NCBI GenBank assembly: GCA_044892525.1
Contig: CM097885.1
Coordinates: 25,236,001-25,300,000 of the forward strand
DNA length: 64,000 bases
Source of the DNA: Schmidtea polychroa
Lineage: Eukaryota
Reading direction: 5' to 3'
Each line of letters opens with the position of its first letter. Position 1 is the first letter of the stretch. The notes under the pieces are model-generated. The model made no database searches. It saw only the letters and a program-made list of their open reading frames with translations, and had not been told where the DNA came from. The translations under genes and the position numbers were made by a program. This document shows positions 13,853 through 62,357 of this stretch, piece after piece.

Positions 13853-33324
<19,472 letters not shown>

Positions 33325-38510: not shown

Positions 38511-39340
38511 TGTTGGGCTAGAACCGAGAATTGAGAGTTGGTTTTAATGGATCGAAAATAAATAACATAAAAACCGCACAAAGTGGATTTAAAAATGTAC
38601 TATCATACACCAAATAATACAAAATAAAGTACACAACACATTGAAAATAAATGAAATACGTGGGTTAATTCGGGATACGCAGGGGTCACGGTCACAAACA
38701 CAGTTAAGAGAAAAATAAAGCATTCAAACTATCTACCAATTAGAAAAATAAAAGAATAGTAAATAAATTGAAAATTGAAACTAAAAATGTTTCCAGTAAA
38801 ACTGATAAGAATTAAAATAAAATTAGTTAAAATTATGTAAATCATAAAGTTGATAGAATTAAACGATTAAAATTAAAGAAAATTAAAATAAAATTAGCGA
38901 AAATTATTTAATTTATTAAAAAGAGAGGTTGAAGACTATAAATCAGTAATAAATCAGTAATAAATCAGTATTAAATCATAACGTATCTCAGCGGTGCATT
39001 TCGATGAATCAAAAGTCTGTATGTGTTTTTTGTAAGTGTTGTGTTTGTGTGTAGTTTTTAATTTTTCTTCCACTTTTCAGATTTCTATAGTATAAGATGT
39101 ATCTGACTGCACTCTAAATGAGAACATCAACGTGAAATTAAAGTAAGTATGTATGTTTCTATGTAAGATTATTGATTTTTTTGTTATATTATAGGAAACG
39201 GTTCTCAGTGGCGTTTGGTGTAAATACTGATTGCAAATTCAGTTGAAGTTAACACAATTTAGAACACAAATTTTGAAGATAAATTTCAACTTAACTTGTG
39301 AACTTATTTTCCGTGTAACCTGCTCTCGGTTTTCGGTCTA
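38511..39340. mobile_element. LTR-like dispersed repeat
   Basis: Starts TGTTGGGCTAGAAC (reverse complement at 58116-58129); internal part is homologous to ~22260-22435 (inverted) and weakly to ~8250-8480. Confidence 0.5.
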
Positions 39341-40063
39341 TGCCATCGTGGTAAGTTTGAAGTGGATTTGGTCATTTTATGAAATGTTATGATTTAATAA
39401 AACTTTATAATCAATTTAATTTAAATTAATTTTTATGTTAAGTAGTTTAATAGCTAAGGTCGTCGTAATCGGATCGCTCATATTTCGATAAAAATTTTTT
39501 AATGATGTTTTATTCGATTTCATTGGGTAGATGGTGCCATTGAATCTGAAAGGGTTCGCGGTGGGTTGATGCCGATTCGTATCCTTGAGGGTTCTAAGCA
39601 CGCAGTTGATTTGGATCCGTGGAGGGCCCTCCGGCGGGTTCGACACTGGACTTTATTTATGAATTTTTATTGAGTTAAAAGTAGTAAAGAAAATGAGATA
39701 GGTTGTAACCAAAGAAGGTTTGGATTTGGGGTGATATTGGAGTTATGATTTCGATTTTTTTAAAAGATAAGTCGAATATCATCGAATATAACAGAAGGTA
39801 TGGAACAAGATCTTTTCAATCTTAAAGGTTCTGAAAATATTATAAAATTACCTTCAGTTGAAAATAAACATACAAAATTACTGAAATATATGAAAAGGAA
39901 ATTTAAGACAAAAAACATTTATCCAAAACCAATTATAAGAAACACCAGAAAATATAAATAGATATTTTCATTCGAAGGAAATCCTTTGATGGAGTTGTTG
40001 ATAAAGATCATAATAATCCGGACCTGAAAATGTTGAAAAATATATAATGACATAGAGAAAAAA

Positions 40064-41275
40064 GGAATAATCCTATTACACACTGTTTAATTAAAAACAA
40101 ACTGTTTTAATTAAAATACACTGTTTAAATATTTAACCAAATTATTTATTTAAAATAAAAATGCCGCGAATCCAAAATATAACAAAACTTACGGAATTAA
40201 TATACAACGATGAAGAGCTAATTGCAACCAGATTTAAATCCGACAGTCTTTATGATGACTTGAAAAAATCCAAACTTGAAGTATTAGAATTTGTGGCTAG
40301 CTTAGGACTTATTAAAAATACTATGGATTGTGAAATGTGCAATGCACACATGAAGTTAGTAAAAGCGAAAAGGCTAGTTGATGGTTATGTGTGGAGCTGC
40401 ACACTCCCATGCCGAAAATCAACTTCTGTGCGATTCGACTCAATATTTTTCGATAGCAAGTTACCGCTAAAAGATTTGTTGATGACTATATTTTTTTGGT
40501 CAAAAAATCAACAACAAGATGAAATTTCTAATGATTTGACTTTAAATAAAAATACATTGGTCGAAAAATGTAAAGATCTTCGTGAATTGTGTGCGATGGG
40601 TTTGGAGGGATTCAACGATGTATTGGGGGGTATTGATGCGGACGGAAATCCAATCGAGGTTGAGATTGACGAGTCATGTTTTTCGAAAAGGAAATATAAT
40701 AGAGGCCGTCTAACAAACAGTAAGTGGGTTTTCGGCGCTTATGAAAGGGGTACTAAGAAGTGTTTTTTGGTAATAGTGCCTAATAGGAATGCTGATACTC
40801 TATTAAGAATAATAAATACGCGTATTCTGCCAGGAACAAGAGTAATAAGCGATGGATGGGCGGCTTATCGTCGTATAATTGAAAGCGGGCTTTTTACGCA
40901 CGACGTTGTCATACATGCGGACAACTTTGTTTCACCAACAGATACAAGCGTTCATACGCAAAATATCGAATCAACATGGGCTCATGCTAAAAGAAAATTA
41001 CGAAACCAATACGGATCGAAAAAATTATATTTAGCGGGTTATTTAAGTGAGTTTTTGTTTCGTCGGAAGTGTGATAAGTTTAAGGTCTTCAATGAGATTC
41101 TGCTGGTCATCCGGAAATGGTGGTAAATTATATTTAGGTTATAACTTGTGTATTATAATTTATAATTTGTATTATAATTTGCAATAAATATTAAAACAGT
41201 TTGTTTTAAATAAAACAGTTTGTTTTTAATTAAACAGTTTGTTTTTAATTAAACAGTTTATAATAGGATTATGCC
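40064..41275 (+). mobile_element. Merlin (IS1595/ISXO2-related) DNA transposon, apparently full length
   Basis: TIRs GGAATAATCCTATTA / TAATAGGATTATGCC (1 mismatch); subterminal AAACAGTTTGTTTTTAATT-type repeats; perfect 8-bp TSD AGAAAAAA at 40056-40063 and 41276-41283. Confidence 0.93.
40161..41126 (+). CDS. Merlin/ISXO2-like DDE transposase, 321 aa
   Basis: N-terminal CEMC...WSCTLPC zinc motif; VEIDES, KRKYNRGR, WVFG, ISDGWAAY, HTQNIES, YLSEFLFR; no stops or frameshifts. Confidence 0.95.
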   Translation: MPRIQNITKLTELIYNDEELIATRFKSDSLYDDLKKSKLEVLEFVASLGLIKNTMDCEMCNAHMKLVKAKRLVDGYVWSCTLPCRKSTSVRFDSIFFDSKLPLKDLLMTIFFWSKNQQQDEISNDLTLNKNTLVEKCKDLRELCAMGLEGFNDVLGGIDADGNPIEVEIDESCFSKRKYNRGRLTNSKWVFGAYERGTKKCFLVIVPNRNADTLLRIINTRILPGTRVISDGWAAYRRIIESGLFTHDVVIHADNFVSPTDTSVHTQNIESTWAHAKRKLRNQYGSKKLYLAGYLSEFLFRRKCDKFKVFNEILLVIRKWW

Positions 41276-41927
41276 AGAAAAAATAATGAAAGATTTATTC
41301 GAAAAACAAGAAGTTTTAAATTTTGAAATAATTTCTGTCCAATAATGTTCGCGATTGTGCTTTTATCTACTTTGTTGTACTCTGTTCGTTCTGCCTGTGC
41401 TGCAGTTTTCAATTTTAATTTCTTTACTACTGTTGCTTTTTAATTTTGAAGGCAAGTTCATAGAAGAATAACGATTATTATGTTGCAAACTATTTTATAG
41501 CAATTAGATTCTCGTGACAGAAAGTATTTGACATGCACAAAATTCGGTCTGTTGCCAGTAGCGATTAGTTTGGGTTAATTTAATTAAGTATAGCACAAAA
41601 TAAACATAAATAACATAAAATTATAAAATAAATTCGATTTTAGAGTAAGAATAAAAATAAAATCAATAAAGTGGTAAGAATTAGTATGATAAAACAATAA
41701 CAAATTTAAACTTAATATTTATAAATTTTGAAACTTTACTAAACATGATAACACGGAGAGGATTGAAAATGTTAATCGAGTCTAAAATCAAATTTTGTTT
41801 TGTAAATTAAAATTAGAATTAAAAGCTAGCAGCCGCGAAATGAGTTCTTAAATAAGTGACTTTGAAATTTTTTAGCTTCGCAAATAAATAAATCTGATAA
41901 ATGGAAATTTAAGTATAAATTTAGAAA

Positions 41928-42267
41928 ATGTCCAGTCAACTCTATCCAGATAAGGAAGAATATCAATCGGAACGGATCACTCGACTCCGAACCCGATGGA
42001 TTTCGTACTACATTCGCAATTGGATCGGGGGAAAGACTGGAGGATCTTGGACCTGTCATCCCTAACCGGACTGGAGCCCCAGCGTGGGTCAAGCAGGAAC
42101 CTTGCCGCAACCTGCTGGAGGAAGCCCGCACACAGGCCGAGAGATAGCTTGCGGAGGACAAATACAAACCTCGACGAATCAAGGCTCATATTCATTCCGT
42201 AGAAGCCGGCAAATCAGTTGGGGAGGCAGAGGTCGAGTCGACCCCTCCACGGAGGCGCGGGAGATGA
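41928..42267 (+). pseudogene. Unknown protein family, copy A (frameshift plus internal stop)
   Basis: MSSQLYPDKEEYQSERITRLRTRWISYYIRNW / ERLEDLGP...AWVKQEPCRNLLEEARTQAER*LAEDKYKPRRIKAHIHSVEAGKSVGEAE; homologous to copies B and C. Confidence 0.7.
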
Positions 42268-43379
42268 TCAATAACAATCAGATGTTCTCTAGCCCACGGA
42301 GAATACAAAAGCCAATTTTTATTTTTGAGTTTTCTTAATTTGGTACTTGACATTGACGGTTTATGGGTCATTTTGATATGATAATTGCTTTTCTGTTAAA
42401 ATTGGAATTGCAGTCGGTTAAAAATTTTATGTGCAATTAATGTATTTATGATTTTGTGCTGTTATTTAAATATACAAATTTTTATTCTTAAGTCTGATAA
42501 ATAAATATATTATTCCTTTTGTTGATATTAAGCTCGGGTTGGGTATTGTACCACAAGAAGGGATTGATTATAAAATACAAATTTTTTTTTATTAATATAT
42601 ATTTGATTAATTTAGTACAAAAATAAAAATTTGGATTTATCTGTAAGTCGCTCAATCCATTTGCACTTTAGCACCCTTAGGCAGGTGAATGTTATAATGA
42701 CAAGCCCTAACTACGTTTAATAAATTCATTTATTAGCTTGAATGTGAAACTGAGGCTTATAATACATTGTTACTTACCTGGAAATTAACGATAAGCTTTA
42801 TAGTAAAATTAGTTACTAACTTGAAATTAAAGACAAGTTTATATTGAAATTATTTACTAACTCGCAATCAAAGATAAGCTTTATATTAAATTTGTTTATT
42901 AATTCGAATTTGAAGTTAGATTTTATAGTGAAATCCTTTATTACCTTGAATTAAAGATAGTATTATTGGAGTTTAAGATAAGTCTTATAATCCAATGTAA
43001 AATCTCTTGTAGTTTTCCATAAATATACGAATGTTTATATTAATAAAATTTTGCTAGTTGTTTAAATTGATTAATTTGGTAACTCCATTAGGCGATTTTT
43101 TCTTTTTAATTGCAAATATTTACCTGCTCAGGGACCAAAGAAATTATCTCGAATCGGATATTATATTTCCACTCGAACCAATCTCAGGGAGGCGTAATAC
43201 AACGATTCGCGTCTTTTACACTTTCTCTGTATTCCCTAACTGGAATTGATGTAGGTGGCTGGAACAGCATCATCGCTTTCGGTAATTCTATTTGTTTTTA
43301 TTTAACTGGTATTTTCAGTGTCTTGTGCTGCTCTTCCTCGGGACGGGGATCAGTCTTATCATACTCCGTTGTCCCTCCG

Positions 43380-43700
43380 TTTAGCATGTCTCTTCCAATG
43401 GCAGACCCTGGACTATATTTCTCTCTTATGAAAAGGGATTTCATGTCTTATTATATGTCTGTAATCAGAATTCCAATTTCATTCCAAGTCTAGGTACAAA
43501 ATAACTCTATTTTTACGTTCCTAATGTCCATCCTCGACAGATAAGTCCTCAGGAGAAAATGGGTTAATTATGATATTTCGCATTCCTCCGATGCCTTCCA
43601 CTGTGGGTTGTATGACTACCGGAGTCCTGATCTGCAGGGATCTCTCCTCGCCCAGTGTATGTCTACTTCAATCAACGAAAATTCTATCATGGGAGGATTT
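43380..43700 (-). pseudogene. Degenerate retropepsin (LTR retrotransposon protease)
   Basis: Reverse strand gives a disrupted DTG-like segment, then PTVEGIGG (flap) and AIGRDML in the expected order. Confidence 0.55.
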
Positions 43701-45320
43701 TACAATCTTCTGTAATTCCGTGCCATTTTAATGTTAGAAGCAGAAATTTCCTTTCAAATTTCAGAAGATTGACAATCCTTCAAGTTGTCTCATCTGGGCA
43801 ACCCTTCAGCCAATAAAAGTTCGATTTCAGGATATATTTTCATTTGTTATTAATTGTTTGATTTTTCATCTAGGAGGGTTTGCAGTTCCCTTGATAAACT
43901 TTGCCTGATTACTTTTTTCTGAGAGGATTTACAATTTCCATTCAATCAGTGTTGATTTATGCGTATATTTTTATTACTTTTAATAAATCTTGTTTGATTT
44001 TCCTTTTTGGAATTAGTTATCATTTATACAGTAAATTTTTATTCCAGTTTAGGCTTTTTGTTTTTATCCAAATGAATTTACGACTCGATTTTTGTTTCTA
44101 AATAAAGTTGGATCTACACCGAATTGAACTAACTTGAGAAATTACTTGAGGGTTGTTGTCCGACAAAAACTATGATTTATCGAAAATTCTAACTTGTCAA
44201 AAGTTGCATATGCTTAATTAGGTAATTTATTTTGGTGTGGTTAGGGGACGGTGGTCATTTTACTTGAGGGGGTCGTACATAGAATTCATAAATTATAATC
44301 TTTAAAACTTCAAAATTTAGTCAAGCTTATGAAATAAATAATTTGCATTGATAAATGGTAGTAGTACTTAAAGGGGGGGGGGGTCACAATTAAAAATTGT
44401 AAATTATAATATTAGAGTTAAAACATATATAATTAAACTATTTAGGTTAATGTACTTATTATCAAGTACGTCATTGGTTTAATCATGAAGTATTTAAAGG
44501 TTTTACCTTCGACTTTTTAACTTGACATAAATAGATCTAATTTACATAGGCAACATGTGAGTCTTAGTTATCAATAGGGTGATATAGATAAATATATGTA
44601 GAACTATAAGGGGGTTAGGGTGTTCGTGGATGTTAGTATGTCGGGTAGTTTCGATTTTCGTTACTTCGGCCGAGAACAAGGGAGTCTGTTGCTAATTTTG
44701 GATTGATGCGTTATTATGATAGGATTGGTAGGAGATTTTTTAGGCTAAATTTAGTAACAACATAAAAAAATAGATAAATCTAATGTTTTGCCCAATAAAA
44801 GTTGGAGGTTGACCATATAGGCTAATTGACAATAATAGGGTGAAAATTAAAGTAATATGGATCTATTGAATAATAATAATACAATAATTTACATAATAAA
44901 ATTAATCAATGATGGTAAAATTCGTAATGTATAAATTAATCAATATCATTAATGAGGACGATACAATATTTATTCATAATTTTAACTCATTTGGATACTT
45001 TATTAACACAGAATTAGGTCATGATTGTTATTGAAGGTTAGGTTCGTCAATGTATTAAAGTCTCAATTAAAAAGACAATACAAGATTGTAATAAAAAAGA
45101 AATTCGAATTAAAGAGCCAATTCAACATCGTCAATCCAAAAGACAATGGAAATTTGTAAAAAAAGACAATATATTTTTTATATTTAAAATATTTTTAAAT
45201 TTGTTGAGCATTACTTTTTCTAAGTGTTATTATTATTATTAATATTGTGTATATGAAAAAACACATTGTCTTTGTTCTAAAAATAGATTAGCCTTTGTCT
45301 TACCACCTCTTAAATACCTT

Positions 45321-46153
45321 TCATGACAAGTGGATTTGGTGTGTTGTGTCTTATCACTTTATTCTAACACTAGTAACGCCTAATTGCCATTTGAAGTGAT
45401 TACATACTGGTTTTAATCCGATGGGATCTAACATACCTCATATTGGATTTCCATTTATTATCGTACCCCAAATGCTACTACTTCTTGGTAAATCAAAATA
45501 ATTTTGTGATAGGTAAATACAACAATTTTTATTTCTTGATTTTGTAACTTCGTAATTAGGAGGAAGTGTGCTCCATGACTCATTGTTTTGTCATTTTTTG
45601 ACATAGCCCCTAGGATATATATATATATACATATATATACATATGTACATTAAGGTTTGAAAAAGTTCGAAGGTTTTTGACCCTTTGAAGGTGGAGGACC
45701 TACCATATACATTCGATGGTATTACTATTGGGTAGACCTCTTCAAGACCTTTCGAATGATACCCTTGTTCGAAGGTTTGACCTCATGTGACTTTTGGAAT
45801 TCAAATTTGAAATGAGTCATATGACCTTGACGAGTCATCAATTAAAAGAAATTTTTCCTAGGGGCTATGTCAAAAAATGACAAAACAATGAGTCATGGAG
45901 CACACTTCCTCCTAATTACGAAGTTACAAAATCAAGAAATAAAAATTGTTGTTGTATTTACCTATCACAAAATTATTTTGATTTACCAAGAAGTAGTAGC
46001 ATTTGGGGTACGATAATAAATGGAAATCCAATATGAGGTATGTTAGATCCCATCGGATTAAAACCAGTATGTAATCACTTCACATGGCAATTAGGCGTTA
46101 CTAGTGTTAGAATAAAGTGATAAGACACAACACACCAAATCCACTTGTCATGA
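45321..46153. repeat. Near-perfect long inverted repeat
   Basis: Arms 45321-45615 and 45856-46153; by eye one substitution and one 3-nt indel; 240-bp spacer. Confidence 0.93.
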
Positions 46154-48121
46154 CATAATAGTATACCTAAGGGACCATCAGCACCTCATACCACAATCTA
46201 CAGACGCCAGACGTCTCGTTTCTACTACTGATTAATCTCGATAACTATATTCGAGAAAAACACGAATTATCGGCAGTTAATTCACCTAACAGTATCCAAC
46301 GATTGCATTTTATCTCATAGACACTGCAAATGCACAGCTAATTAACCAACCTGATCGATTTAGCTTATACAGACTAGATAATTCGGCTAATTGGCTTATG
46401 TGACAATTCACGTCATCTGTTAATGATACGGGTAGAGTAGACTAAACTCATAATGTTCCGATTAAGTCTTTTCTAAAAACTTAGTAGAGTTCAAATAGTC
46501 AATTCAGGTCACATACCTATCTAGATAATAACTGACAATTTGAAGTGATAATTCGAACAATCGTACAATGATAATGAAACGGATTCTGCTACATATAATA
46601 AATTTTTCTCTAGTAAAGTCGACCGATCCCTCCCCACTAAATAATCTAAAGAGTAAGGATCACCGGGTAAAAGTTTTCGCCTTGATTTTTGGCGGTTAAA
46701 TCCAGTTAGAATAACTAGATGTGAGGGGAAATTATCCTATAAATTATGCTAGCTCATCGTTGAGAGGAGTCTGGATAGGCTTCTTTAACTGGCTAAGTTT
46801 ATGTCTTCATTAAACAAACTACAAGTAGGTGGGCAAACGATAAACTACTGTTGTTGAGAAATGCGTTTAACTTAGGTCAGCTCATTTAAATATATTTATG
46901 ATACACCGAACATAGGATTGAATCAATTAATCATTTCCATAGGAAATCTCCCTTCTTACTCGTTCATCACAACTCTAAATAGTCTGCGAAAATTGTCATA
47001 TAATTTGTTTAAATATTTTATAAATCGTTAAATTAAAACTATCAATTTGAATAAATAATGACTCCAGGTTGCTTTAATGAGTCAAGCACCCCCAAAACCT
47101 TTGTCATTCACGGCAAACGACGCACCTTCGACGTCGCCAATCAAACCAAAACGCCGTCAACCCACCCAGGCATAAAGAAACAAGAAGTGGAAGGTCCTAC
47201 GAGGCGAAATTAGTCGCCGAAGCCGTACTAGGAAATCAGCAGGCGTCAGTCGAAAAGTCACATTTATCTCATCCTCCTTTTAGAGTTATTCCGCCCAGTA
47301 CTTCTTGGGAAGACAATGCGAGAGACTTCTCTGACTTGGACGAAATGTTCGCCGGGGCTTCCCCATCTACGTTATAAAACTCAACGAGAATCCTGAAATT
47401 TTAAAGACAACAAATAACTGAGAAATTGTCCACGACATTAGTTGTGTTGATGTGATATACTGGGTATTATATTAATTATATTATTGGGTATTATATTAAA
47501 AGTTTTGTGTTTATGTGGTGTTGTCTTTTTCAATGTTTCCACAATGTGATTTAATGCAGTATGATTGTTGGATAATGTATGGGAGAAATAAAAGAGTACG
47601 GGTCGATGGTTCGATGAGTGATACGAGACGTAAGTCCTTCTATATGCAGTCAGGAGATGAGTAAGTCGAGATGTGGTGGAGGAGTAGTCCTAAGGCAGGG
47701 GCTCACCGTGTCCCGCCATCATAGCACAGTACCAACATGATGAAAATGATGGGCGTCATGGTGAGGAAATAGTCATCGGGGTTTTTGGGCTAGCGGTCAA
47801 CGACGAATGCTTGTATATTTTCGATTGACCTTCATCCCCTAATAGCGAACGAAGGTGTTCTGACCTAGACCGACGACCCAACATCTCCCCGGAACAGAAC
47901 CAAATCAATCAACCTCACCAATCATCTATTACCCAGTTCCGGTCGTTTATTCGGCGAATTTTGAATCAACCTCAGTTCGTCCGCTTCCACAGGCAGTAGT
48001 TAGTGGTCCATTGCTATTTATTGGCCTTATTATGGCGGCAACTGCATCACCAGTCCAGCCTCAGAAGCCCAAACGGAAACACCTGCGTTGTGCGTTGCGT
48101 TGGGTAGCCATGAGATGAGAT

Positions 48122-48337
48122 ATTTCTGAAATAATTGGGCCAGGAGCTTCTACAGTTGCATCAATTGTCGAGAAAAACACTCGTAAATCGATTTTACAAT
48201 TTGACAAATCCAGAATCATCAATGCCATGGAAAATGATGAAAATTACTATGATTTTGGAAGATTTTTAGGAATCACCATAAGTACAGCCAAATGTATTAT
48301 TTACAAATATAAAAAATATGGTGAAATGTTGAGTTAA
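48122..48337 (+). pseudogene. Tc1-like transposase N-terminal HTH fragment
   Basis: RKSILQFDKSRIINAMENDENYYDFGRFLGITISTAKCIIYKYKKYG has a paired-like HTH pattern; truncated. Confidence 0.6.
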
Positions 48338-49072
48338 AAGTAGAAATTAGTGAAGATTCTTTGGATATGAGATCAACCAACAGCCACAATTTTTGATTGG
48401 TGAAAACAAAAATTGACTAACCAGTGCAGCAATATCCAACTATGAATAACTTCAAAATGGCTGAAAGTTTAGTGTGAATAGCCTGAGTTCTACAAATGAT
48501 CAAAGTCAAAAATTAGTGTGTAGAGCTACTAAAAGTGATCGTGAAAGGAGCCCGAAATTAATTCAGAACTACAAAAACTGATGTTTTAAAGAATTCAACT
48601 ATGAATAGTAGCTCTTAATTTTGAATCAAACAAGTTCATGTGAAAATCGATAAATTACGATATTACCGATTAGTTAAAGCTAGCTTTTGGAGAGACAAAT
48701 TATGTAAAATGAAAGAAATGTTTGATTTGTTAATAATTTTATGATAATATATTTTTATAATTGTAAAATAATTTTGAATTTTATATTGATAATTTTAAAT
48801 TAATAATAAATTTATATTGATCATTTTATTAAAATTATATAAATTATATTTATATGGCAGAAATACGAAACCTCGGGTGTACCCAAATTTGTTCCAATTT
48901 TATGAGATGAATAATTCAGAATTCAGAACGATAAACACTGAAGTTTTAAAGAATTCAACTATGAACAGCAATTATGTTAACTTTGAATCAAACAAATTCA
49001 CGAGAAATTACATAACACTAAAGGAACCTTTAGAAATGTATAATTTCCATGAAGGGCTGGATTAAAAGCCCG

Positions 49073-49152
49073 ACCTACACCTTCGATATATTATGACGAT
49101 TTCTAGTACAAAACTTGCAAAGTTTTTAGAGTTTCCTACCGGGAATGAGGAT
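49073..49152 (+). pseudogene. Partial duplicate of the BAF-like 5' end, retaining ATG at 49093
   Basis: Near-identical to ~49338-49417; reads MTISSTKLAKFLEFPTGNED and then diverges. Confidence 0.75.
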
Positions 49153-49357
49153 AATTTGAAGCTCGATGAGAGAAAAAGTACAAAAATTGTCAGTTGGTGT
49201 TTAGTATTTAAAAAAACCGTTAAACAAATCAGAAAACTTAAAAATATTAAGATAGCTAATTTATAGTAAATTATAAGTCGTATATTATATATTATTGTCA
49301 GTCTCTTTGTAGCTGGGTAGTTCCATAGTTATTACTTACCTACACCTTCGATATATT

Positions 49358-49543
49358 ATAACGATTTCTAGTACAAAACTTGCAAAGTTTTTAGAGCTTC
49401 CTATCTGGAATAAGGATGTTATCGAAACCCCAGGTGTTGGAGATGCGTTAGCAAAAAGATTTACCGAAAAAGGCTGCAATGCCAAACAAGCTAGTATTTG
49501 CTTTGACGCAATTGATGCCTGGGCTGATTTGATTCTATTATAA
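49358..49543 (+). pseudogene. BANF1: BAF (barrier-to-autointegration factor)-like sequence, start ATG>ATA, central ~30 aa missing
   Basis: ITISSTKLAKFLELPIWNKDVIETPGVGDALAKRFTEKG^CNAKQASICFDAIDAWADLILL* versus recalled BAF [38 protein letters not shown][...][21 protein letters not shown]. Confidence 0.8.
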
Positions 49544-51330
49544 ATTAATATAAATTAGGAATCTCACCAGGTTTATTTGATACTTGATTGTTTTGATAGT
49601 TCAAACGAATTTACGATGTTTAATGTTTTTGTTATTTTGATGTTAAAAATAATTTTTTGATGCGTTTTTATTAACTTGATTTATGTCTACAAAATTGTCT
49701 CATTTTTATGCCCGATTCTGTAACACATACAAAAAAATCGTGGCTCTACGAAACACTACAAATAGGAGTCTGTGATACCATACATAAACCGATTATCAGA
49801 TCAGATTATGTTTATGCACCTTTCTAATTGAATGTATTAGTGTTGGGAAATATGGCTAATTTAAGGTTAATTTTGAATAAAGTTCTTTGAATGGGCGCTC
49901 GGTAAAGGACATTTATTAGCATTGAAAGGTTTGTAAATAGTTTTGTATTTTAAAGCCCGACTTATTTAACCAAGCGTCGGTAAAGTGGGAAATGTATTCA
50001 ATATAAGCCAATCTGAAAGGAAAGCAGAAGAATGTGAGTACTGACATGCAAAAAGACAATCGATACAAATATGTACCACATGCAAGTAGAAACATCGTCA
50101 ATGAATCCGAAATATTTTTCATGTGTAGAATCAAAAAGCACAAGTTATAGATAAAATTGGTATATTTATTTATAAATTGCATGCTACAAAGTGTAGGTAA
50201 TTTAGATATATTGTTACAGTTCAAGCAACTGTTGGGTTATAAACAACCGCTGCCACTTAAAAGAATTCATATACAAAAAAATTCAATGGAAAGACACTAA
50301 AAGCTAAATTCAGATGCTCCAAAGAAACCCTCAAAAACCAATACAGAAAGTAATTAACATTTTGTTTTATTCTGACATTATTAATAGTGATCAAAATTTT
50401 GCACACCTTATTTTGGAAATTATATATATTAACAATTACTTAAATTAATTAATTACTAATTATTATTAAATTAATGTAAACATTTAAATTTTATTTATTA
50501 ATAAATTTATAAATATTAGGTAATTCAGCAATGAATAAGAATTCTGAAATGAGTGAAAATGATTATCGTATATATGTAAAATTTTCAAAATTTATTTCTT
50601 TTTTTTGTAAGTTAAGAATATGAATTATATATTTTTGAAATCCAACAAGATTGAGGAGAAATAATAAATTTATATGATTTTTGTAAATCAATAGTATCAA
50701 TTTGTAGAGGAGATCGTTACGAATCGAATGAAATCAAAATATTATAAATTAATAAAATATTAAATTAAATCTATTTGAAGCATGCAAGAAAATTATTATT
50801 GATAAAATAGTTTTTATTGTAGTTAAAATCGAATTAAAAGTCGAGTTGTCGTTAGATTTTATATTTTAATGGATTTGTAACGTTAATTTATTATTTTATT
50901 CAATTAGAGCATATAATAATTAATATATATTATATAATTGTTTAGCATTAATGTTACTCTTGTTATTAATATAAAATCCCTTTAATTATTTGATGTTTTT
51001 AACTGATTGAATTTTATTGAATTTGTCTTAGAAATGTGTGGTCTTCAAATTTGGAGATAATATTTTACATTTTTGTATCGTAATTCATCAAGTACGATAT
51101 TGAATTGTTTTTATGAAAACACAAACTAATCTAGCAACGGCCTTGTATATATTTATATATCAAATAAATTGAGTTAAAAAAATTTAAATGATTGTATAAA
51201 TATATCAAATCAAATTATTTAAGGTATATACATTTATTTGTGTTTTATTTAAATAATATATATATAGACAATTTTAATTTGTTATTATAATAAATCTTAT
51301 TTAGATGTTTTCTTTTAGTTTTTTTATAAC

Positions 51331-51565
51331 ATGGCGTCACAGGCCGTATTCGACCATTACATTTTAGAAAAGATTTTATATCAAAAATGATGCCTCGACG
51401 CATATTACAGATCTTAAAAGGATGATGAAAGAGAACCATATTTCAACAGATGAGGCGAAAGTTCGGAATTTGTTAGAATCATTGGAAGAAAACGCTGGTA
51501 TTGAGCTTATGTCACTACCAGGGTATGCGAAGAATACTAAGGATTATAAAGAAATTAAAGGTTAA
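51331..51565 (+). pseudogene. Degenerate gag-like N-terminus
   Basis: MASQAVFDHYILEK / DASTHITDLKRMMKENHISTDEAKVRNLLESLEENAGIELMSLPGY..DYKEIK, a gypsy gag-like pattern with a frameshift. Confidence 0.4.
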
Positions 51566-52598
51566 TTTTTAGGCTTATACAGAATAAAAGAAAGACAAAT
51601 TTTCTCCATTTTCGATTATAAAATTTAATAAAAGTGATCTATCTTTAAAGTTTATAATTAAACTGAAGGTAGAATTATTTTAGAAAGAACCCGGGTTAAA
51701 TGAAGACGAAAGAGAAATAATTGTATTATTGGCATTTTCCCGAGAATTAAATAATGAAAAGACAGCAGTTTCCATACAGTTTAATCATCCAAAAACTTAT
51801 ATAATCTAATAACAAATTTTAATTTTTTTATTAATGTAGTTGCCTTAATTCTATTTTTTTCCTGAAGGGGATGAAAAATGAAGTTCATTTCTACATTTTT
51901 TGGCTCTATTTTAGAGAAAGTGATTCTTAATATTAATGCTATGTAACTATAAATAAGTCTATTTCTTATATAACTTTTTCCCAGTTTCATGACATGTTCA
52001 CAAATATAATAGGAACCAGGCATTGATATCATTATTTTGGCATGTTCAATTAGATTACGAAGAGACTTTACTCAAATCTTTTTTTAATTCTAATTTTAGT
52101 ACATTTATAAATATTTGTTTAATTCTGGGTAATTTTATAACTCTATTAATTCAAGTTGATATCTGGACTCAATTTCTTCAACATTTACTAAAAATTGAAT
52201 ATTAATTTCCATTTCTTTGAAATCTTTTAAAACAATTTTCAAATTCGTTGTGAAATTTAGTAAGTTTCACCGCATATAATTGGTGGGTTACAGGTACTGC
52301 AAAATCTTTACCTCCTCATGCTGTTTCCAGCGTAACCCAGAATACAATTTATAGCTGACCACTTGATACCCGTTGAGCAATCAACGTTGGTACTGTATCA
52401 AGGGTTTGGGCACTAGCAAAAAGTGAGCATGCTTAACATACTATAATTGTCTAGTACCCACTGGGGTTCACGGACTACCGATAGAAGGTCTATGTCCGGT
52501 TTCTTTTCGTCCCCGTAGCAATAATCATCAACAAAAAAAAATCAAAAGATACAGTCATGGATACACCAGTAAAGATTTATTCGGACAACATGGACAAC

Positions 52599-53063
52599 TT
52601 ATAGTGTCCTGGTCGATTCTCTTGGTGTAGCCTCTGATCCAGTAGAATGGAGAGTTAATTGGGCCTGGCTGGCTTGCCTTATTCTCGCTCGCGCCGCTTT
52701 ACCCGGCTGAATCTTCTTCCTCGGGATTGCTGTTGTTGGGGTGCACCCCTTCGATTGGTGGAGCAACTCACTCGTGGGTCGGATCTTGGCAATGACCTCT
52801 CGATCAAGGTCCTGTTGGTGTACCTTGACCTCCAGCTCCCTCACTCTCAGGCGGAGGGCCCGCAACTCAACCTGATCTTGTGCACTCTGGAGTTGTAGTT
52901 GAGTGATCAACTCTATCCGTTTTTTCATTTCCGCTGGCGGGAACCAGGTGCATTCGAAATTCCGGCAGTGGGCCTTGACTCGTGCTAGCTTGGCCCGGTA
53001 TTCCTCTGCCTGTTGTTGCGCCCGTTCCCTATCTGCTCGCATCTCTTCCAGGAGTTTTAGCAC
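52599..53063 (-). CDS. Hypothetical coiled-coil protein with basic tail, possibly spliced at the 5' end
   Basis: 154-codon GC-rich ORF with heptad-like stretches; acceptor-like ttcgttttag immediately upstream. Confidence 0.5.
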   Translation of the reverse strand: MLKLLEEMRADRERAQQQAEEYRAKLARVKAHCRNFECTWFPPAEMKKRIELITQLQLQSAQDQVELRALRLRVRELEVKVHQQDLDREVIAKIRPTSELLHQSKGCTPTTAIPRKKIQPGKAARARIRQASQAQLTLHSTGSEATPRESTRTL

Positions 53064-53556
53064 TAAAACGAAATAAAATCAATGAATTTTACATCAGCAT
53101 CGAGGGTCGAGCATCATTATGAGTATCAATGTTAAAAGTAGGTAATCCCCTCGTCTCAGTCCTCCGCTACGCACACCCCAAAACCGAGTTCTATGTATCT
53201 TACCCAACCTTATAGTGCTGTCAACGCTATAGAAAATTGTAGTCAACAATAATGATACTCCATGTCATGAACATTACTAAGAATCAAACAATCCACACAA
53301 TTAAGTTATCATCGACCACCAAGACACAAACAAACATTAAATAATTATGAACTATTAAGACCTAACGAATAATATTCGAATCCTGGATCAAAGATGTTTA
53401 ACACAGTACATATCACACAATACACCCAATAACAAGGTCATCACATAATAATTAGTTTTTATCACAAGTTTTTCGTTTTGACACAACACGGACGTCAGTC
53501 GTACCGTGCCCGCTAGTCTTCGGTTCCGTACTCTCCTTGGTTGAGCTGGCGGTCTT

Positions 53557-53991
53557 TCACGGGCGTCCGCGTTTTCCCAGTCGTTCCAGTCCCCGTTGCG
53601 ATCTTCTTGGGTATTCCAGCCCACGTTGGAGAGCCGCGGTTCGCTTTGGATGGCATTGGGCTCGTGCGTACCCGTCACAGTCTTCCATCTTGCCGGCCAG
53701 GGTTGCTTCTTCGAGCCGGTGTAATCGGTCCACCGCTTCCTTTACCTCGTCAAAGGCATCGATCAAAGCTAATGACGCGCAATTGATGTAACGCTCAACC
53801 TTCGGCGTTACGGGGACTACATTCTGGTAGGTCCAATCATGGATCTTATACCAGATCCACCTGGACCTCAGGCGAGTGAGTTCTTCTTCCTGGTCCAGTC
53901 TGGTAACTTCGTCTGCCTCCTCTTGAGTTAGGTTGCGTCTTGATGCGGATGCCAAGGGATTCGCGTGGCTGTCTTCTGATCCAAGCTTCAT
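53557..53991 (-). CDS. Unknown protein family, copy B (open 144 aa; C-terminus possibly frameshifted)
   Basis: EELTRLRSRWIWYKIHDW...PKVERYIN...AVDRLHRLE; GC-rich island. Confidence 0.6.
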   Translation of the reverse strand: MKLGSEDSHANPLASASRRNLTQEEADEVTRLDQEEELTRLRSRWIWYKIHDWTYQNVVPVTPKVERYINCASLALIDAFDEVKEAVDRLHRLEEATLAGKMEDCDGYARAQCHPKRTAALQRGLEYPRRSQRGLERLGKRGRP

Positions 53992-54204
53992 CTACATCTA
54001 GTTACCCCCAGACGTTTAATACACAATTTCATTCATGTTCGAATTGCTAATTAATTAATTTAAGTCGACTTGGGAATCGCGAAAGTCAAGGCCTACAAGT
54101 ACCAGTTAGGAAATTACAGTTCGTATATTTACATTGGGAATCCATTATTTTAGGTTTGATGAATCAATAGTTGGTGCAGTAAGGACGGATGTTTAAAGTT
54201 TTAT

Positions 54205-54370
54205 ATATTAAACTTCCAACACTGGTTGTTTAAATCATTTAAAGATTTATTTCATTAATTTATATCAAGTCACATTAATTTAAATATTAAACTTCCAATG
54301 CTAGTTGTTTAAATCATTTAAAGGTTTATTTTTGTTAATTTATATCAAGTTACATTAATTTAAATATTAA
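54205..54370. repeat. Two tandem ~80-bp units
   Basis: ATATTAAACTTCCAA...CATTAATTTAA repeated twice. Confidence 0.85.
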
Positions 54371-55927
54371 TTTGCATTTATTTAAATGTAAACATTCATT
54401 TTTATAATTTAATTTTGCTCTCTGTTGATGATTTTGTCAACAATCAAACCGTGCTACTAGGACCCATCCTGGGAAACGGATATTGTAAATTGCCTGAATT
54501 TAAATTCAGCCCTTTGTGAGTCCCTGGCCAGGATGGTTGTAAGTGGCTTTCTCTTCAACGGACACTTAACGGGTAAGTTGAAGTTTGATTTTAACTTGTC
54601 TGATTTCAGGGACAGTCTCTTGATGCTCCACGGTAAATACGATACCTTAAATAATGGATTTATGACACTATTGCCGGATGGTAGTTCAGACTATGCCAGT
54701 ACGCTAAATTCATGAGATACTTAGCTGAGAATTGTTATTCCTTTCCGGTTGGGGATCTATGCCGTGAGTTTTTAAGTTCTCTATTTACTCCCGAGGATAT
54801 TCAGGGATTTCTCAGTTGTTGTCGTGATTACACTGATGGAAGTAATTGGTCAGATAATTTTCACGAAACGAGCCTACGATGGAATTTAAATTTGCGTTTC
54901 TATTTTTTTTTCTATGTGGTTTTCTATTTTTACTTGGTTATTTTGGTTAATAAACTTTTGAGTTTTTGGTCTTTACATAATCCTAAGTAATTAATTCAAT
55001 TTTCCAAAGTAGCGTCGACATAATTTTATTTTTCTGAAGTAGATAAATAAACTGGGGTGTTTCCTCCCCCGATGATCTGGGAGACAACTATGCCTCGATG
55101 CGGTTGTTATTAACATGGGCAGACATATGTGCACACACGGACATATACGCATGTCCAAACATAAATGCATAACTTAAATTTAAATTATTGATCCTATCGT
55201 CGTTTACCGGGGGGGGGGGGGTTGTTACTAAACATAGATTCAGTGGTTTCCTGAAATTTTATTGGAGGGTAGGGTTATTGTAACTAAATTAGGACATAGG
55301 GGGATCCCAGAATCAACAATTAGCAAAAATTTAAATTTAAAAAAAAAATAATTATTTTAATAACTTAATAATAATGATAGTGATAACATTAGTGGTAATG
55401 ATAAGGGCGAAACTGCTAACGGCCGTAATAATATTAACATTAATAATTATAATAACAATAGTAATAATAATAATAATGATAATAATAATAATAATGATGA
55501 TATTAATAATAATAATAGCGATAATAATAATACTGATAAGGATAATAATAATAATAATAGTAACACCCATAATAATGATAATGGTAATATTAATAATAAT
55601 AGCCAGGTTAATAACAACAATGACAATAAGGTTAATGATAATGATAATGGTAAATGTAGATTCGTAATTTATAAGGTTACTACATAGGGGAAATCATTTT
55701 CGGGAAGTTATGAACGCATTTTCCACTCTGAGATATGCAACGATATTTCTAAAGTAATGTAAGCTAGCTGAGCCTAGAAGCAGATTAAACTAATACTTCT
55801 AGGTAGTCATTAAGGACCATAGGAGTCAAAAAGGGTCGTTTATAAAATTTTATAGGTAATCATTCCAGATATATATATTACAAGTCACTTTGTGCAAGGG
55901 GCATTTATGCAAATTCTCGAACAATCC

Positions 55928-56720
55928 TTTTTAACATATTATAATTCAAATATATATTAAAATCAGTTAATTTAGGACATTTATGTAATGGGTAATGTAT
56001 ATATATTTCGGGGGGGGGGGGGGGGGTCATTTAAGAAAATTCATAATTTATCGTTTCCTAAACCTACTGTAAGTTAAGTATATGCTAAGGAAGATTAATA
56101 TACTTCTATATACTATTATATAGTGATGATGTACACTTTATTAATGTAATTTTAAGAGAATTAATAATAATAATAATAACGATCCTAAAGATGGAAATTG
56201 CTAGATTATCACTTTTAACATATTACTATCCAAAATTACATATTTCAAATAAGTTCATTTAGGACATTTGGGTGATGAATATATATTCCGGGGGGTCATT
56301 TGAGAAAATTCATCATTTCCTAAACCTACTGGAAGTTAAATATATATTAAGGAAGATTAATATACTTCTATATACTATTATATAGTGATGATGTACACTT
56401 TATTAATGTAATTTTAAGAGAATTAATAAAATAATAATAATAACGATCCTAAAGATGGAAATTGCTATATTATCATTTTTAACATATTACTATCCAAAAT
56501 TACATATTCAAATAAGTTCATTTAGGACATTTGGGTGATGAATATATATTCCGGGGGGTCATTTGAGAAAATTTATAATTTATCATTTTCTAAACATAAT
56601 GTAAATATGTATTAAGAAAGCTTAATATACTTATATATGCCATTATATGGGAATGATATACCATTTATTAATGTAATTTTGGAAAATCAATAATGATAAT
56701 AGTAATGATGCCAAAGTTGA
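55928..56720. repeat. Three tandem ~265-285 bp units
   Basis: Units start TTTTAACATATTA at ~55928, ~56213 and ~56477; each has TTTAGGACATTT and a G-run followed by TCATTT. Confidence 0.9.
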
Positions 56721-57446
56721 CAATATTATTAGGACACACAAAAAAAAATCTTTGAAGATTTTATATCAACTAAATTTCAATACACATAAAGGTAAGAATG
56801 AAAATTTTGAAGGGATTTTAGTTTATAATAATACACATCGAGCGTGAACTAGATTACATTGAATAAAATTATGAATAGTATTAATTTGAGTCTGGGATAT
56901 TTCCCGTTTAGATGTTCCTAGTGATATATTTCCTATAGAAGGTTTAAGTGTTTATTTTTGGTATGTCTTTTACCGAAAGGTCGAATTAATTAAAATTTTC
57001 CTACTTTCCCGACTCAACTGAATACGGTACGATAGGCCTTATTGTGTTATGTTTCCCGCGATTACTTTCCCGAAGTTTATTTCGTCCGCATAGTCCCTAT
57101 GACTATGCCAACTACCGGTATGGATTTACCGCCCTACTCCTGGTTAGAAACCATTTGTTCGTGGCGACCTCCGGTTAAAAAAAAAATTTGAAATTTTTAT
57201 GCATGTGGGGTCGTAGACCCAAAAATTGTGCATGTGGCTATTAGTTGGAAGCAAGACTACCCATTCACGACGACGCTAGTCACTCTTGTTCAGTAATAAT
57301 CAAATATGGAAAAAGATAAAAATATAACTAATAAGATGAAATATAATGATAAAAGAACAACCATAAAATAAATATAATCAACAGTGCTTACTCTCGGTGT
57401 CGATTAGATTTTCGATAAAAACTTTTGGCATACAAAAAGATTAAAT

Positions 57447-58090
57447 TGTGACCGAAATGCGTCAGTATATATACCTATTTTGTACACGTGTATGTATTGA
57501 TGCATTAAAACAAACTCGAATTCTTTTTATTCCAGAATTTTCTATTTCGTGATTTTGATATTTTTAATGGAAATTTTAGTGCTATAATTTTTGTTTTTAT
57601 TTTTAAATTTTTATTTTCTAATTATTTTTCATTAATTTTACGTCCATGATGGATTTGGAACGGTTCCAGAACATTCTATTTTATTTTTAATACAATTTTC
57701 ATTTTAACTGCTGTTTTATGAATTTCTTTTTAAGATTTTTTTATTTTTAATAATAATTTATTTATTTTCTCTAACTTTTGTTGTTCTAAATGGCCGTTGT
57801 GATGGTCGTCGCCATTTTATGGAATGTTCTGGGTTTTTCTGAAATCTTTTTACTGTTTTTATCGTCTTTTAAGTTATTCGAGTTTGCTTTTTGTAATTCT
57901 ATGTTTACTTGGTCATTTTTGAGTTAGATTTTGCATAACTTCTTGCTTTTGTATAATTTTTATTTAATTTCTGTGTTTTAGTTTTTTGTTGTTTTTTTCT
58001 TTAATTACTATTGTTTATTTTGTGTAGTTTTTAATATTTAACTATACTTTTTGCTTTTTGCATGCTGTGTACCTACACATTTCGGTCACA
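57447..58090. mobile_element. Solo-LTR-like element
   Basis: TGTGACCGAAATG...CATTTCGGTCACA termini (TG..CA); strongly T-skewed interior; no clear TSD. Confidence 0.55.
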
Positions 58091-59027
58091 ATTAGAAATT
58101 TGGGTCTAGAAGTCAGTTCTAGCCCAACATAATTTTAATTTATTATCTGTAAGATTTTTTATAAAAACTCTTGGAATAAGATATTTTTTATGAAAGACAT
58201 ACTTATGAAAAAGATATGTTGAGCATTAAAGATCTTTATATTATAATCCAAAGGCCATCAATAAATTGATTTTTCTTTGAAGTTGTACCTTTAACTTATT
58301 GAAATGATTAAAAAAATTTACACCAAATAAAATATGGATAGACCATCTTGGGCCAATGTAGTGTAATTTCTTTTGACATAATAATTTATTTTAAATATTA
58401 TTTATTGTTTCTATTTTTGAAAAATACTGAATTTCTATTTCTATTATCAACCCATAAGTTTATCTTTATCAATATTAGTTACGGCATTATTTTTAAGAAG
58501 CTATAAAAATAATCCATTTATTTATAAATATTGATAAAGCTTTCAGGATTCTCATATATAGATAAAGAATTTACGCAATTCTTGAACGATATGGAAAAAC
58601 TGAAAACTTGAACAGAAAGTGAAATAAAAGCAAACCAAACTTCACCGAGAATCAAAAAGTGAATTTTAAATCTCAAAGCCAGAACGGTTGGAAAAATTGT
58701 TAGAAAATTTCATATATCTAAATATTTTTTTTTGAAATTCACCTTAATAATTCTGTTGAATAAAAAAACGAGTACAAAAATCTGAGAAATGCAAAAATAT
58801 TTGAAAAATTTGAAAATGTACAAGCTGGTGGTTTACTGATGATTAAGTATTTTGCAATGTCGCCTCTCCGTCATATAAATTCAGGGGCAAAAAAAATGAA
58901 ATCCAACTATTCAATTTATTCAGATATCACAAAGATGCAGCTAATAGAGTACAAAGGTATAACCAAAAAAACAAGATCAGTTCAAGTGAGTAACATGAAA
59001 ATCATCGTCAATAATCGATAAGTGAAA

Positions 59028-59362
59028 TTAGGTTACATTTGATTCTTCCGGCGCCTCGTCGTCCTCGGCCTCTTCCAGAGGGTTTCCCACCTCTTTCGCT
59101 CTAAGCTGGCCTTCGATCTTCCGTAATCTGTACTGGGCGACTTCTACCGCCATTCGTGCCTGGTCACGGGCATCTACCAGTTGATTGTTGTAAGGCTCCG
59201 TTTTCACCCAAGCCTGGGTCCACTCCGGATCACCGGGCCGTAATTGTCTAAGTCTCAACCTCGGTCCCAGTCGTGAATTTTATACCAGATATATATGGTC
59301 TGGAGTCGAGTGAGTAGCTGCTGGTTTGGCTCGTCATCGTCGTAGTTGTGGGATTGAGACAT
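59028..59362 (-). pseudogene. Unknown protein family, copy C (one frameshift)
   Basis: MSQSHNYDDDEPNQQLLTRLQTIYIWYKIHDWDR / LRLRQLRPGDPEWTQAWVKTEPYNNQLVDARDQARMAVEVAQYRLRKIEGQLRAKEVGNPLEEAE. Confidence 0.72.
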
Positions 59363-59711
59363 TCTTAATTAGATAAGTATGGTTAAAGGTTTAAGTCCGA
59401 AAGGTCATCTTCTATGGTTCATTCGTCCAATTACGTCACAAAATAATGATGGGTTGAATATTTGATCATAATCACTCATATAAATTTGTATCGTAAGTTA
59501 AATGGTAATCAATTAGAAAATTAACTGGTAAATTGAAAGGTTAATTAACTGGTAAATCGAATCGTAAATTAGGTCATAAAGGAATTATAAACTGACTGAT
59601 AAATTAAATTGTAATCACAATATAACTTCATCTAAATAAAAATAAGATTTTTAGGCCCGTACGCTTAGGTGACAAGACTTCTTGGTGGGAGGCGATGACT
59701 TGGAAAAAGGG

Positions 59712-60050
59712 TCATGGTGCACTGGGAAGATGTTGTCCGCTTCGTGGATGGGGATACTGACGATTTTTCGAGTAGAGGCCGCCTACAAGTAGACTTTGTG
59801 AAGAGCTTCCGATTGCTCTTTTATCAGACTCCGTTGAGAACGGCTCTCGGAGATTAGAGCGTCGCGACAGTGTTCGCTGCGGTACAATTTCTTCTGTACC
59901 TCTTTCATTTGTACTGGGCTGAACCATGTACCTTCCAGTTCGTCGATTTTTCTTTTGTATCAACCGATCTGGGCCTGCAAATCTTTGATGATAGTTTTTA
60001 TCTGAACACAAGAAACAGGGTCGTAACACAGGTCTTGTATTCGGTAGCAT
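59712..60050 (-). pseudogene. Gag-like ORF fragment with degenerate CCHC zinc knuckle
   Basis: CFLCSDKNYHQRF, with the final C reachable by a 1-nt shift. Confidence 0.4.
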
Positions 60051-61803: not shown

Positions 61804-62357
61804 TGAGGGCTGAGTCGAAATGAATTTGTTACACTTTTGAAATAGTCTGCGTTGGTTCCTAATGCTGATTGTTCCTTAAATAATTCCGGTTGTCGGTATG
61901 TCGCTACTGATTTCTTGATCTATAACAGTCGATATTTTTTATGATTCGCTTACCTATAAAATTTTTGAGTTAACAGTGATTCTAATGATTTTGGTGCTTT
62001 ATTATATACTGATTTTTCGTGTGTGCGGACCAATCAGAATTGAGTACCGCTTAGTTTTTCTAATTTAATTTACTTTTTTTGTTTTTTTGGTTATTTTTCT
62101 TATTTTTCTTATATTTTTTTATTTGTTTCTTTAATTTCCTCATTATTTACTGAATTTTACGTCATTTTATTCGTTATTTTATTTTTCTTATCTTAATTTT
62201 CTTATTTTTATTCTTTGTTTTAATTCTTATATCTTAATTTATTGTTTCTTTTGTATTTTGATTCCAGTTTATTTTTAAATTTGTTTGTTTTATTTTTATT
62301 TTATTTAACGACTTGCTTATCCTAATTTCCTAGCTATGCTTTCGACTCAGCCCAACA
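61804..62357. mobile_element. Solo-LTR-like element
   Basis: TGAGGGCTGAGTCGAAA...TTTCGACTCAGCCCAACA termini; T-skewed interior; no clear TSD. Confidence 0.55.

Follow-up and report, generated by a model that had tools for sequence, protein, structure and literature searches.

Three broken copies of a small gene

The window analysed here is a stretch of 64,000 nucleotides (nt) from the planarian Schmidtea polychroa (GenBank assembly GCA_044892525.1, contig CM097885.1, positions 25,236,001 to 25,300,000 of the forward strand), and coordinates below count from its first letter. It holds three decayed copies of a small gene, named here open reading frame (ORF) A, whose open relatives lie inside the long terminal repeats (LTRs) of giant Burro-type Gypsy retrotransposons. 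In a six-frame translation of the whole window, the motif L/I-TRL..R.I.Y.I..W is matched exactly three times, at 41976 (+), 53880 (-) and 59314 (-), where a first-pass annotation made from the letters alone had placed three copies of an unrecognised protein family. The copies belong to two types, called alpha and beta:

41928..42267 (+): ORF A copy 1, beta type, broken; insertions or deletions near 42026-42071, in-frame stop at 42145-42147, PRRRGR end
53557..53991 (-): ORF A copy 2, alpha type, broken; 50-nt deletion near 53988 (splice acceptor and native start gone), stop right after RGRP
59028..59362 (-): ORF A copy 3, beta type, broken; gaps near 59219 and 59050, AT-hook lost

With a GC content of 0.55, 0.55 and 0.52 (copies 1, 2 and 3) against 0.27 for the window, the copies are indeed the GC-rich islands that had been described. 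Copies 1 and 3 are each split by frameshifts, as had been claimed of two concealed copies. Copy 2 has to be added to the broken ones: the 50 nt missing from it contain the acceptor and the native start in all three close relatives compared.

The kinship of the copies was controlled for composition with profiles built from alpha-only (copy-2-type) or beta-only relatives, each piece being compared with 500 shuffles. The alpha-only profile gives 19.9 and 23.7 bits to the N-terminal pieces of copies 1 and 3 (best shuffles 6.3 and 5.2), so that the kinship holds despite composition; it fails on the two later pieces of copy 1 (no score and 0.4 bits) and is marginal on the later piece of copy 3 (6.8 bits, best shuffle 5.1). 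With the beta-only profile all six pieces exceed their own shuffles (14.8-61.7 bits), the later pieces of copy 1 scoring 25.2 and 14.8 bits. Copy 2 reaches 282 bits on the profile of its own type and 23.0 on the beta profile (shuffle 9.5). The DNA divergence is as strong as had been noted: copies 1 and 3 are 65.7% identical over 248 nt, and copy 2 can be aligned to either over 49-60 nt only.

The LTR-like surroundings proposed for the copies were verified. The protease, zinc-knuckle and gag-like remnants also proposed nearby were not recovered, since none of 54 segments scanned (52 picked from the 92 listed for the window, plus 2 from the LTR) has such a Pfam match at E<=0.05; a motif scan of the window gives a single weak knuckle-like 21-mer, at 47693-47755.

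The gene lies inside the LTRs of giant Burro-type elements

Copy 2 sits in a complete solo LTR, which also contains a second, open frame named ORF B, and copy 1 most likely belongs to a truncated LTR:

52281..58129 (-): complete solo LTR, alpha type, holding copy 2; TG...CA ends and a 4-bp target duplication (ATTA/ATTA)
57392..57480 (-): predicted promoter and exon 1, proposed from conservation; TATA-like motif at about 57473, initiator (Inr)-like motif at about 57454, ATG at 57431, donor with last exon base A (57392)
55929..56719 (-): tandem repeats of about 263 bp in the variable LTR middle (predicted intron)
52599..53062 (-): ORF B exon with an open frame of about 154 codons, directly after an acceptor AG (53064-53063); encodes long helices with a TWFxP kink and a basic helix
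52576..52581 (-): AATAAA directly behind the B stop, predicted poly(A) signal
52281..52500 (-): conserved LTR 3' block, predicted U5; covarying multi-hairpin RNA structure
38511..42370 (+): truncated LTR, most likely the host of copy 1; LTR start motif at 38511, right end approximate

Copy 1 is found 3.4 kb behind the LTR start at 38511, with a DNA transposon of 1.2 kb intervening; neither B nor the 3' end block was found in this truncated LTR. Copy 3 is an LTR fragment adjoining a remnant of a different element, and the remainder of its LTR was not found around 59028..59362.

Searches of the species' own genome returned 2005 candidates with copy 2 as query and 2730 with an open beta-type relative, figures which are not copy numbers; the 150 best candidates were scored per genome search. 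Many ORF A matches form same-strand pairs about 30 kb apart. In six of the 11 pairs fetched, the matches lie in the paired LTRs (4.3-5.7 kb, 99-100% identical) of a single element of about 34-36 kb; the spacing as such was rejected as proof of an LTR pair, since it failed in the other five. With the solo LTR of the window included, LTR length ranges from 4.3 to 5.9 kb. The elements measure 33.9 kb (E8), 35.1 kb (E9), 36.3 kb (E1), 35.8 kb (E10) and 36.9 kb (E2), all above 30 kb, and E11 is longer through an insertion. TG...CA ends, a primer-binding site (PBS) and a 4-bp target duplication are present in 5/5 elements checked, one of the duplications being uninformative (AAT run). No classical polypurine tract was recognised; a conserved stretch that is not purine-rich, but GC-rich and then T-rich, precedes the 3' LTR in five of five elements (pieces L022, L029, L113, L118 and L121), and the plus-strand primer may be atypical or located elsewhere.

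The internal frame of E8, of about 4,790 codons, is open in two adjacent stretches (2280 and 2510 codons, scanned separately). Its Pfam domains follow the order Gag-CCHC-MATH/TRAF-fusion protein-protease (PR)-reverse transcriptase (RT)-RNase H (RH)-integrase (IN)-ankyrin. The env-like fusion protein (Monjiviricetes_fusion, E 3.5e-31 and 5e-30) is encoded in the same frame, after gag and before protease. Accessory ORFs of the internal region encode a RING and a TRAF-finger protein. BIR, BCL2-like, SUMO-like and dUTPase motifs gave no Pfam match at E<=0.01 in the E8 frames scanned; some of these were detected by HHpred in a review of such elements (PMC6431247). Burro1/GYPSM1 are described there as planarian Gypsy-like LTR retrotransposons of more than 30 kb, with an internal region of about 25 kb, a giant frame and accessory ORFs (PMC6431247). 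The present carriers resemble them in size, internal region, CCHC, MATH/TRAF, the fusion protein between gag and protease, PR-RT-RH-IN, ankyrin and accessory ORFs (PMC6431247), and are assigned to the Burro type by this layout, not by sequence identity to the published Burro1/GYPSM1. The earlier guess of giant Burro-type Gypsy carriers thus agrees with size, layout and domains. Its other half, an extra ORF among the internal ones, has to be replaced: the gene is located inside the LTR, and is therefore present twice per element and again in solo LTRs. The text of the review's section on Burro1/GYPSM1 names no LTR-internal ORF (PMC6431247).

Two side observations concern these carriers. In piece L111 (3159-3470), no ATG occurs among the first 103 codons of the giant gag-pol frame, though the region is conserved between elements, so that the gag-pol start may need splicing or a non-AUG codon. 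Pieces L125-L129 (G000:C2:81150001-81200000) hold an entire element, its giant frame carrying a non-LTR-like insertion, and Burro sequence in opposite orientation abuts both of its LTRs, which makes these nested insertions.

Proteins A and B

Protein A has 121 residues in the beta type and about 150-190 in the alpha type. It begins with a variable acidic part and continues with a helix of the invariant pattern RL.R.IW.....W and another long helix, and an AT-hook stands at its C-terminus. The RGRP core of this hook is found by pattern in 33 of 39 aligned A proteins and Pfam AT_hook matches 22 of the 39 (best E 0.012); it is retained across the alpha and beta types even though A is only about 33% identical between them. 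With its basic flanks, the core forms an AT-hook motif, from which binding to the minor groove of AT-rich DNA is predicted. ORF B, which the first-pass annotation did not mention, normally follows 0.2-0.6 kb behind A. Its product, a coiled-coil protein of about 155 residues, consists of two long helices interrupted by an invariant WFxP and of a basic helix behind them (residues 120-148, mixed K/R). No membrane segment was found in A or B.

The statement that A belongs to no known domain family is borne out, the short AT-hook motif excepted. Pfam gives nothing but AT_hook for A and B, besides weak chance-level matches; no A homolog appeared among 8000 candidates or in 1.84 billion representatives; a PDB sequence search gave a best E of at least 0.6; and an Atlas search gave no usable match for A and generic coiled-coil leads only for B. 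Foldseek with the model of A returned nothing at E<=0.001. For B a single unnamed protein matches, and it is itself an alpha-type B. These blanks are weak evidence, because the libraries searched are largely microbial. A prediction of the A-B complex, run without alignments, scored 0.01 and gave no answer. The carrier is known, and A and B are two protein families without match in the libraries searched. A literature search gave no account of ORFs inside Burro LTRs; it did not cover Grohme 2018, Lee 2026 and their supplements, which may describe them.

Selection on A and B

Pairwise Nei-Gojobori dN/dS, computed with three old A rows and one B homolog excluded, has a median of 0.141 for A-alpha (166/171 pairs with dS>0.15; 19 sequences), 0.109 for A-beta (125/136 pairs; 17 sequences), 0.135 for B-alpha (43/45 pairs) and 0.068 for B-beta (23/45 pairs, the other 22 being saturated). 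The idea of an accessory gene under purifying selection is well borne out, with medians of 0.07-0.14 for A and B and not near 1. It had been phrased as past selection, and there the wording was too narrow: elements with 99.98-100% identical LTRs have open A and B, so that selection is not confined to the past.

These values also bear on whether A and B are genes at all. GC-rich LTR segments might be conserved for a role of their DNA or RNA and be open by chance, as the lack of homologs and of any transcript junction seen would allow. We regard this as highly improbable. It is mainly refuted by the codon pattern, dN/dS being 0.07-0.14 with dS near or above 1, and 11 residues of A are invariant across types whose DNA hardly aligns.

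The ratio pN/pS is 0.15-0.23 for shared variants and 0.29-0.53 for singletons; the stronger constraint on shared variants is expected if selection acts during transposition. This speaks against a quite different role, in which A and B, supplied by solo LTRs, would act on host genes or stem-cell survival, since domesticated loci are not what such a difference points to. All three window copies are moreover decayed. In favour of host-directed effectors, the anti-apoptotic RING/BIR region of Burro1 aids regeneration according to a source citing Lee et al. 2026 (PMC13465017), and many solo LTRs keep open frames, only 10 of the 150 best matches containing a stop, in a ranking that favours intact copies. 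A and B are quite unlikely to be effectors of this kind.

LTR types on a shared backbone and a second giant family

Six elements share 94.9-99.2% identity in their RT-integrase DNA, with no division by LTR type (alpha-alpha 95.9, alpha-beta 94.9-96.8), whereas the alpha and beta LTR middles give no alignment and the proteins are only 32-38% (A) and 36-41% (B) identical between types. In the same way, dS is 0.14-0.33 for pol and runs from 0.9 to saturated for A and B. The types of A and B match in 87 of 102 contexts and none is clearly mixed (4 are ambiguous and 11 lack B). Grouping by type is also seen in U3, the 3' block and the leader's first ~1.5 kb, but not in the last 600 internal bases or in gag-pol; LTR and leader together are thus an old module that has recombined with coding sequence common to the types. 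A swap of R-U5 only, during the first strand transfer, was considered and is unsupported, since U3 and the leader also follow LTR type. The ‘several lineages’ of retroelements suggested at first are therefore real as diverged types, yet these are LTR types on one nearly identical gag-pol backbone and not separate lineages.

This pattern weighs on a further reading of the AT-hook. HMGA1 is a cofactor of retroviral pre-integration complexes, and A might be an element-encoded HMGA-type stand-in, bending the AT-rich LTR ends or tethering the integration complex to chromatin rich in AT. The hook itself and the very AT-rich genome and LTR ends fit such a role. Integrase is about 97% identical across elements whose A is about 40% identical, so that the two do not co-vary, and the role as an integration cofactor is held to be improbable.

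A second giant family, of about 30.7 kb, encodes a fusion protein, RT and gag (pieces L186-L189, G000:C3:21380001-21417000), and a genome search returned 6547 candidates for it. Its LTRs, of 4236 bp and 99.98% identical, carry one ORF, named C, of 253 residues. C is a homolog of B: it obtains 29-37 bits from a B-only profile, whereas no shuffle out of 1000 exceeds 6.4. Since the one element of this family that was examined has a B homolog and no detectable A, A is dispensable for a related element. In C, the genomic ATG stands right after AG in 6 of 8 contexts, and the candidate donors of one element end in G, in contrast to the splice sites described below for B. As a side observation, a 28-nt stretch is repeated around positions 548-625 of this LTR.

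Predicted expression of the LTR

A CACGTG box, a TATA box and an Inr-like motif stand about 650 nt from the beginning of the LTR and are followed by a short, variable exon with a donor. Of 35 distinct donors, 34 have A as their last exon base, while the neighbouring bases vary; two more promoter matches have no donor in range. With the junction marked by a slash, the acceptor of B reads AG/TG in 61 of 66 contexts, and a splice between a donor ending in A and this acceptor would make the AUG of B, which in E8 and E9 has no methionine in its first helix. Two bases ahead of the ATG of A, an AG is found in 55 of 60 contexts, in the same phase as the B junction, and the ATG of exon 1 is in matching phase in 26 of 35 cases. 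In 32/36 alpha and 30/35 beta LTRs, a poly(A) hexamer is present in the interval from B to the 3' block.

From these sites, transcription would start near LTR position 670, and the short exon 1 would be joined to an acceptor just before A or before B; in the latter case the A/UG joint would create an in-frame start codon, and the RNA would be polyadenylated after B. We consider this model of the LTR as a transcription unit, deduced from conserved sequence signals, to be probably correct. A and B would then lie in an R region of 3-5 kb, and any unbroken solo LTR, having its own promoter together with A and B, would be a free-standing, trans-acting unit. Splicing of A to B into a single protein was rejected, as A has no conserved internal donor; the two are thus alternative products. 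Spliced-leader trans-splicing was also set aside as the source of the B start, since the AUG at the end of the flatworm leader would be out of frame with B. By eye, a 14-bp inverted repeat was seen in a beta LTR (piece L110, ~5218 and ~5850); it connects the initial 60 nt of this LTR with the Inr-like motif, which lies at a distance of about 620 nt.

The internal accessory ORFs show an AG 0-3 nt before their ATG in all seven checked (1-4 contexts each), which makes it probable that the element RNA is multiply spliced. A heavily spliced element needs export of its unspliced genomic RNA, and this favours a Rev/Rec-like switch, in which B, as a helical oligomer with a basic helix, alone or with A, would bind structured RNA at the LTR 3' end or in the leader and promote export or packaging of unspliced RNA. 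A covarying structure is indeed present in the last 220 nt of the LTR: 9 of 46 pairs are changed on both sides and 97.4% of cells are paired, and the covariation score was reached by 0 of 500 shuffles (27 sequences from 87; this control ignores relatedness). The structure would be intronic in spliced RNA. B also has the basic helix (120-148) and is shared with the second family. Structured U5 and leader regions are, on the other side, ordinary in LTR elements, the motif conserved in A is a canonical AT-hook, the searches made found no sequence similarity of A or B to Rev/Rec-type factors, and the switch fits B more readily than A, with which the finding is concerned. Such a switch is rather unlikely to explain ORF A.

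A putative regulator of its own LTR

The alternative to which we give most weight is that A regulates its own LTR in chromatin. A would be a nuclear helical protein tethered by its AT-hook to the AT-rich LTR, where the invariant RL.TR.IW..I.DW helix would recruit or block a host factor. It would work like a retroviral transactivator or a VANC-like anti-silencing factor, keeping the LTR transcribed, and LTR, leader, A and B would be inherited as one typed module. This proposal leans on four points: no recognisable feature other than the hook persists from type to type, the LTR has a very high AT content, gene and promoter are inherited together, and Burro elements are PIWI targets (PMC8532177). 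For regulation that is type-specific, the evidence is co-inheritance with LTR and leader type only. The role of A as a nuclear AT-hook regulator, whether transactivator or anti-silencing factor, is put forward tentatively and with some doubt.

Several points weigh against the reading. Linkage alone might account for the joint inheritance of A, B and LTR. A lone AT-hook has little strength or specificity, and could function as a nuclear signal or in RNA binding. The structure model of A has no confident fold (pTM, its predicted template-modelling score, is 0.30), and neither homolog nor fold supports any function for A in the libraries searched, mostly microbial. In the one element of the second giant family that was examined, no A is detectable. 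The exon-1 ATG is out of phase in 9 of 35 cases, and no joint at the predicted splice sites appears among the matches listed, which come from contigs of guessed RNA status aligned to part of the window LTR and part of a beta LTR, both lacking exon 1, and are neutral either way. The copies being related, the counts of donors and acceptors are not independent observations, nor are the pairwise dN/dS values. The five remaining pairs of the 11 fetched are not LTR pairs of one element: two are separate LTRs, two are segmental duplications and one is unresolved. Taken as a whole, the reading of the three window pieces as broken copies of a selected LTR gene, whose product likely binds AT-rich DNA and acts on its own LTR, is finely balanced.

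A wider picture can be drawn, which we offer as speculation more apt to fail than to hold. Burro LTRs would be self-contained two-gene units, and solo LTRs, in hundreds to thousands, would make an AT-hook factor A and a helical factor B acting in trans, type-specifically, on their own LTR and leader. Ancient modules would be swapped as ‘alleles’ on one enveloped gag-pol, forming a counter-silencing or Tat/Rev-like circuit in an animal stem-cell genome. Burro is a major, PIWI-controlled component of planarian genomes, and one such element is reported second-hand to help stem-cell survival; the LTR genes A and B offer a direct handle on promoter, splicing and silencing control in so large an element. 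If the transcription model is true, solo LTRs, usually seen as inert scars, are a large pool of protein-coding units. Diverged LTR and leader modules on a homogenised gag-pol also mean that Burro families defined by RT alone conceal several regulatory types.

Comparison with known systems

Like AT-hook proteins of the HMGA type (PF02178), A has a C-terminal PRKRGRPRK-type motif, in the beta type often preceded by TP. Unlike them, it has one hook only, joined to an unrelated helical region, with no homology beyond the motif, and its DNA binding is predicted from that motif.

Complex retroviruses have regulatory genes at or in the LTR, such as foamy virus Tas, HIV Tat, Rev and Nef, HERV-K Rec and MMTV Sag. 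A and B resemble these in being small and predicted to be spliced, in their basic motifs and in their probable action on their own cis sequences, although no sequence similarity to them was found. The retroviral genes either overlap with U3 or stand ahead of the 3' LTR; for A and B, a position entirely within R is predicted, downstream of the LTR's own promoter, and could for this reason be expressed by solo LTRs.

In Drosophila gypsy, the start codon of the internal env gene is formed by splicing, as AT/G (PMC2585583). Splicing would likewise make the start of B, as A/TG and in an LTR-internal gene. The nearest precedent for two small ORFs is found in MDG1/412, where sORF1 and sORF2 lie upstream of gag and a short transcript ends at an early poly(A) site (PMC11952523). 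In contrast to A and B as predicted here, these sORFs are unspliced and located between LTR and gag, and sORF2 is a membrane protein (PMC11952523). VANC proteins are anti-silencing proteins of Arabidopsis VANDAL transposons (PMC5735166). As may hold for A, this trans factor diverges together with non-coding, tandem-repeat-rich parts of its own element (PMC5735166). VANC belongs to a DNA transposon and acts on plant DNA methylation (PMC5735166); the likeness is one of analogy.

Other features of the window

Two more mapped features adjoin the LTR fragments:

40064..41275 (+): ISXO2/Merlin-type DNA transposon with terminal inverted repeats; ISXO2-like transposase ORF at 40137-41126, an open 329-codon frame
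59657..60020 (-): broken B-homolog remnant of the ORF C type; identity of about 51% with the ORF in the LTR of the second giant family

The latter is part of a further element remnant at 59657-62364 (-), with an LTR-end-like block, a PBS-like motif at 61558 and then the broken C-type ORF. The B homolog apparently lies downstream of the PBS there and not inside an LTR, and piece L083 has the same order.

Elsewhere in the window, host gene exons are found at 20872-23748 (+) and 32263-33324 (+), the last one with a KIDINS220-type SAM domain (E 6e-23). A BED-finger-like remnant at 35925-36329 (+) probably derives from a hAT transposon (weak Pfam match, E 0.06). At 45321-46153 lies an 830-bp near-perfect inverted-repeat element, resembling a miniature inverted-repeat transposable element (MITE), with arms of about 300 bp that are 98.7% identical. 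A segment like barrier-to-autointegration factor (BAF) is seen at 49181-49953, with Pfam SAM_BAF at E 2e-6; it has an 89-100% identical match just past the window end (piece L196, 4391-5400), and looks like a locally duplicated BAF gene or pseudogene.

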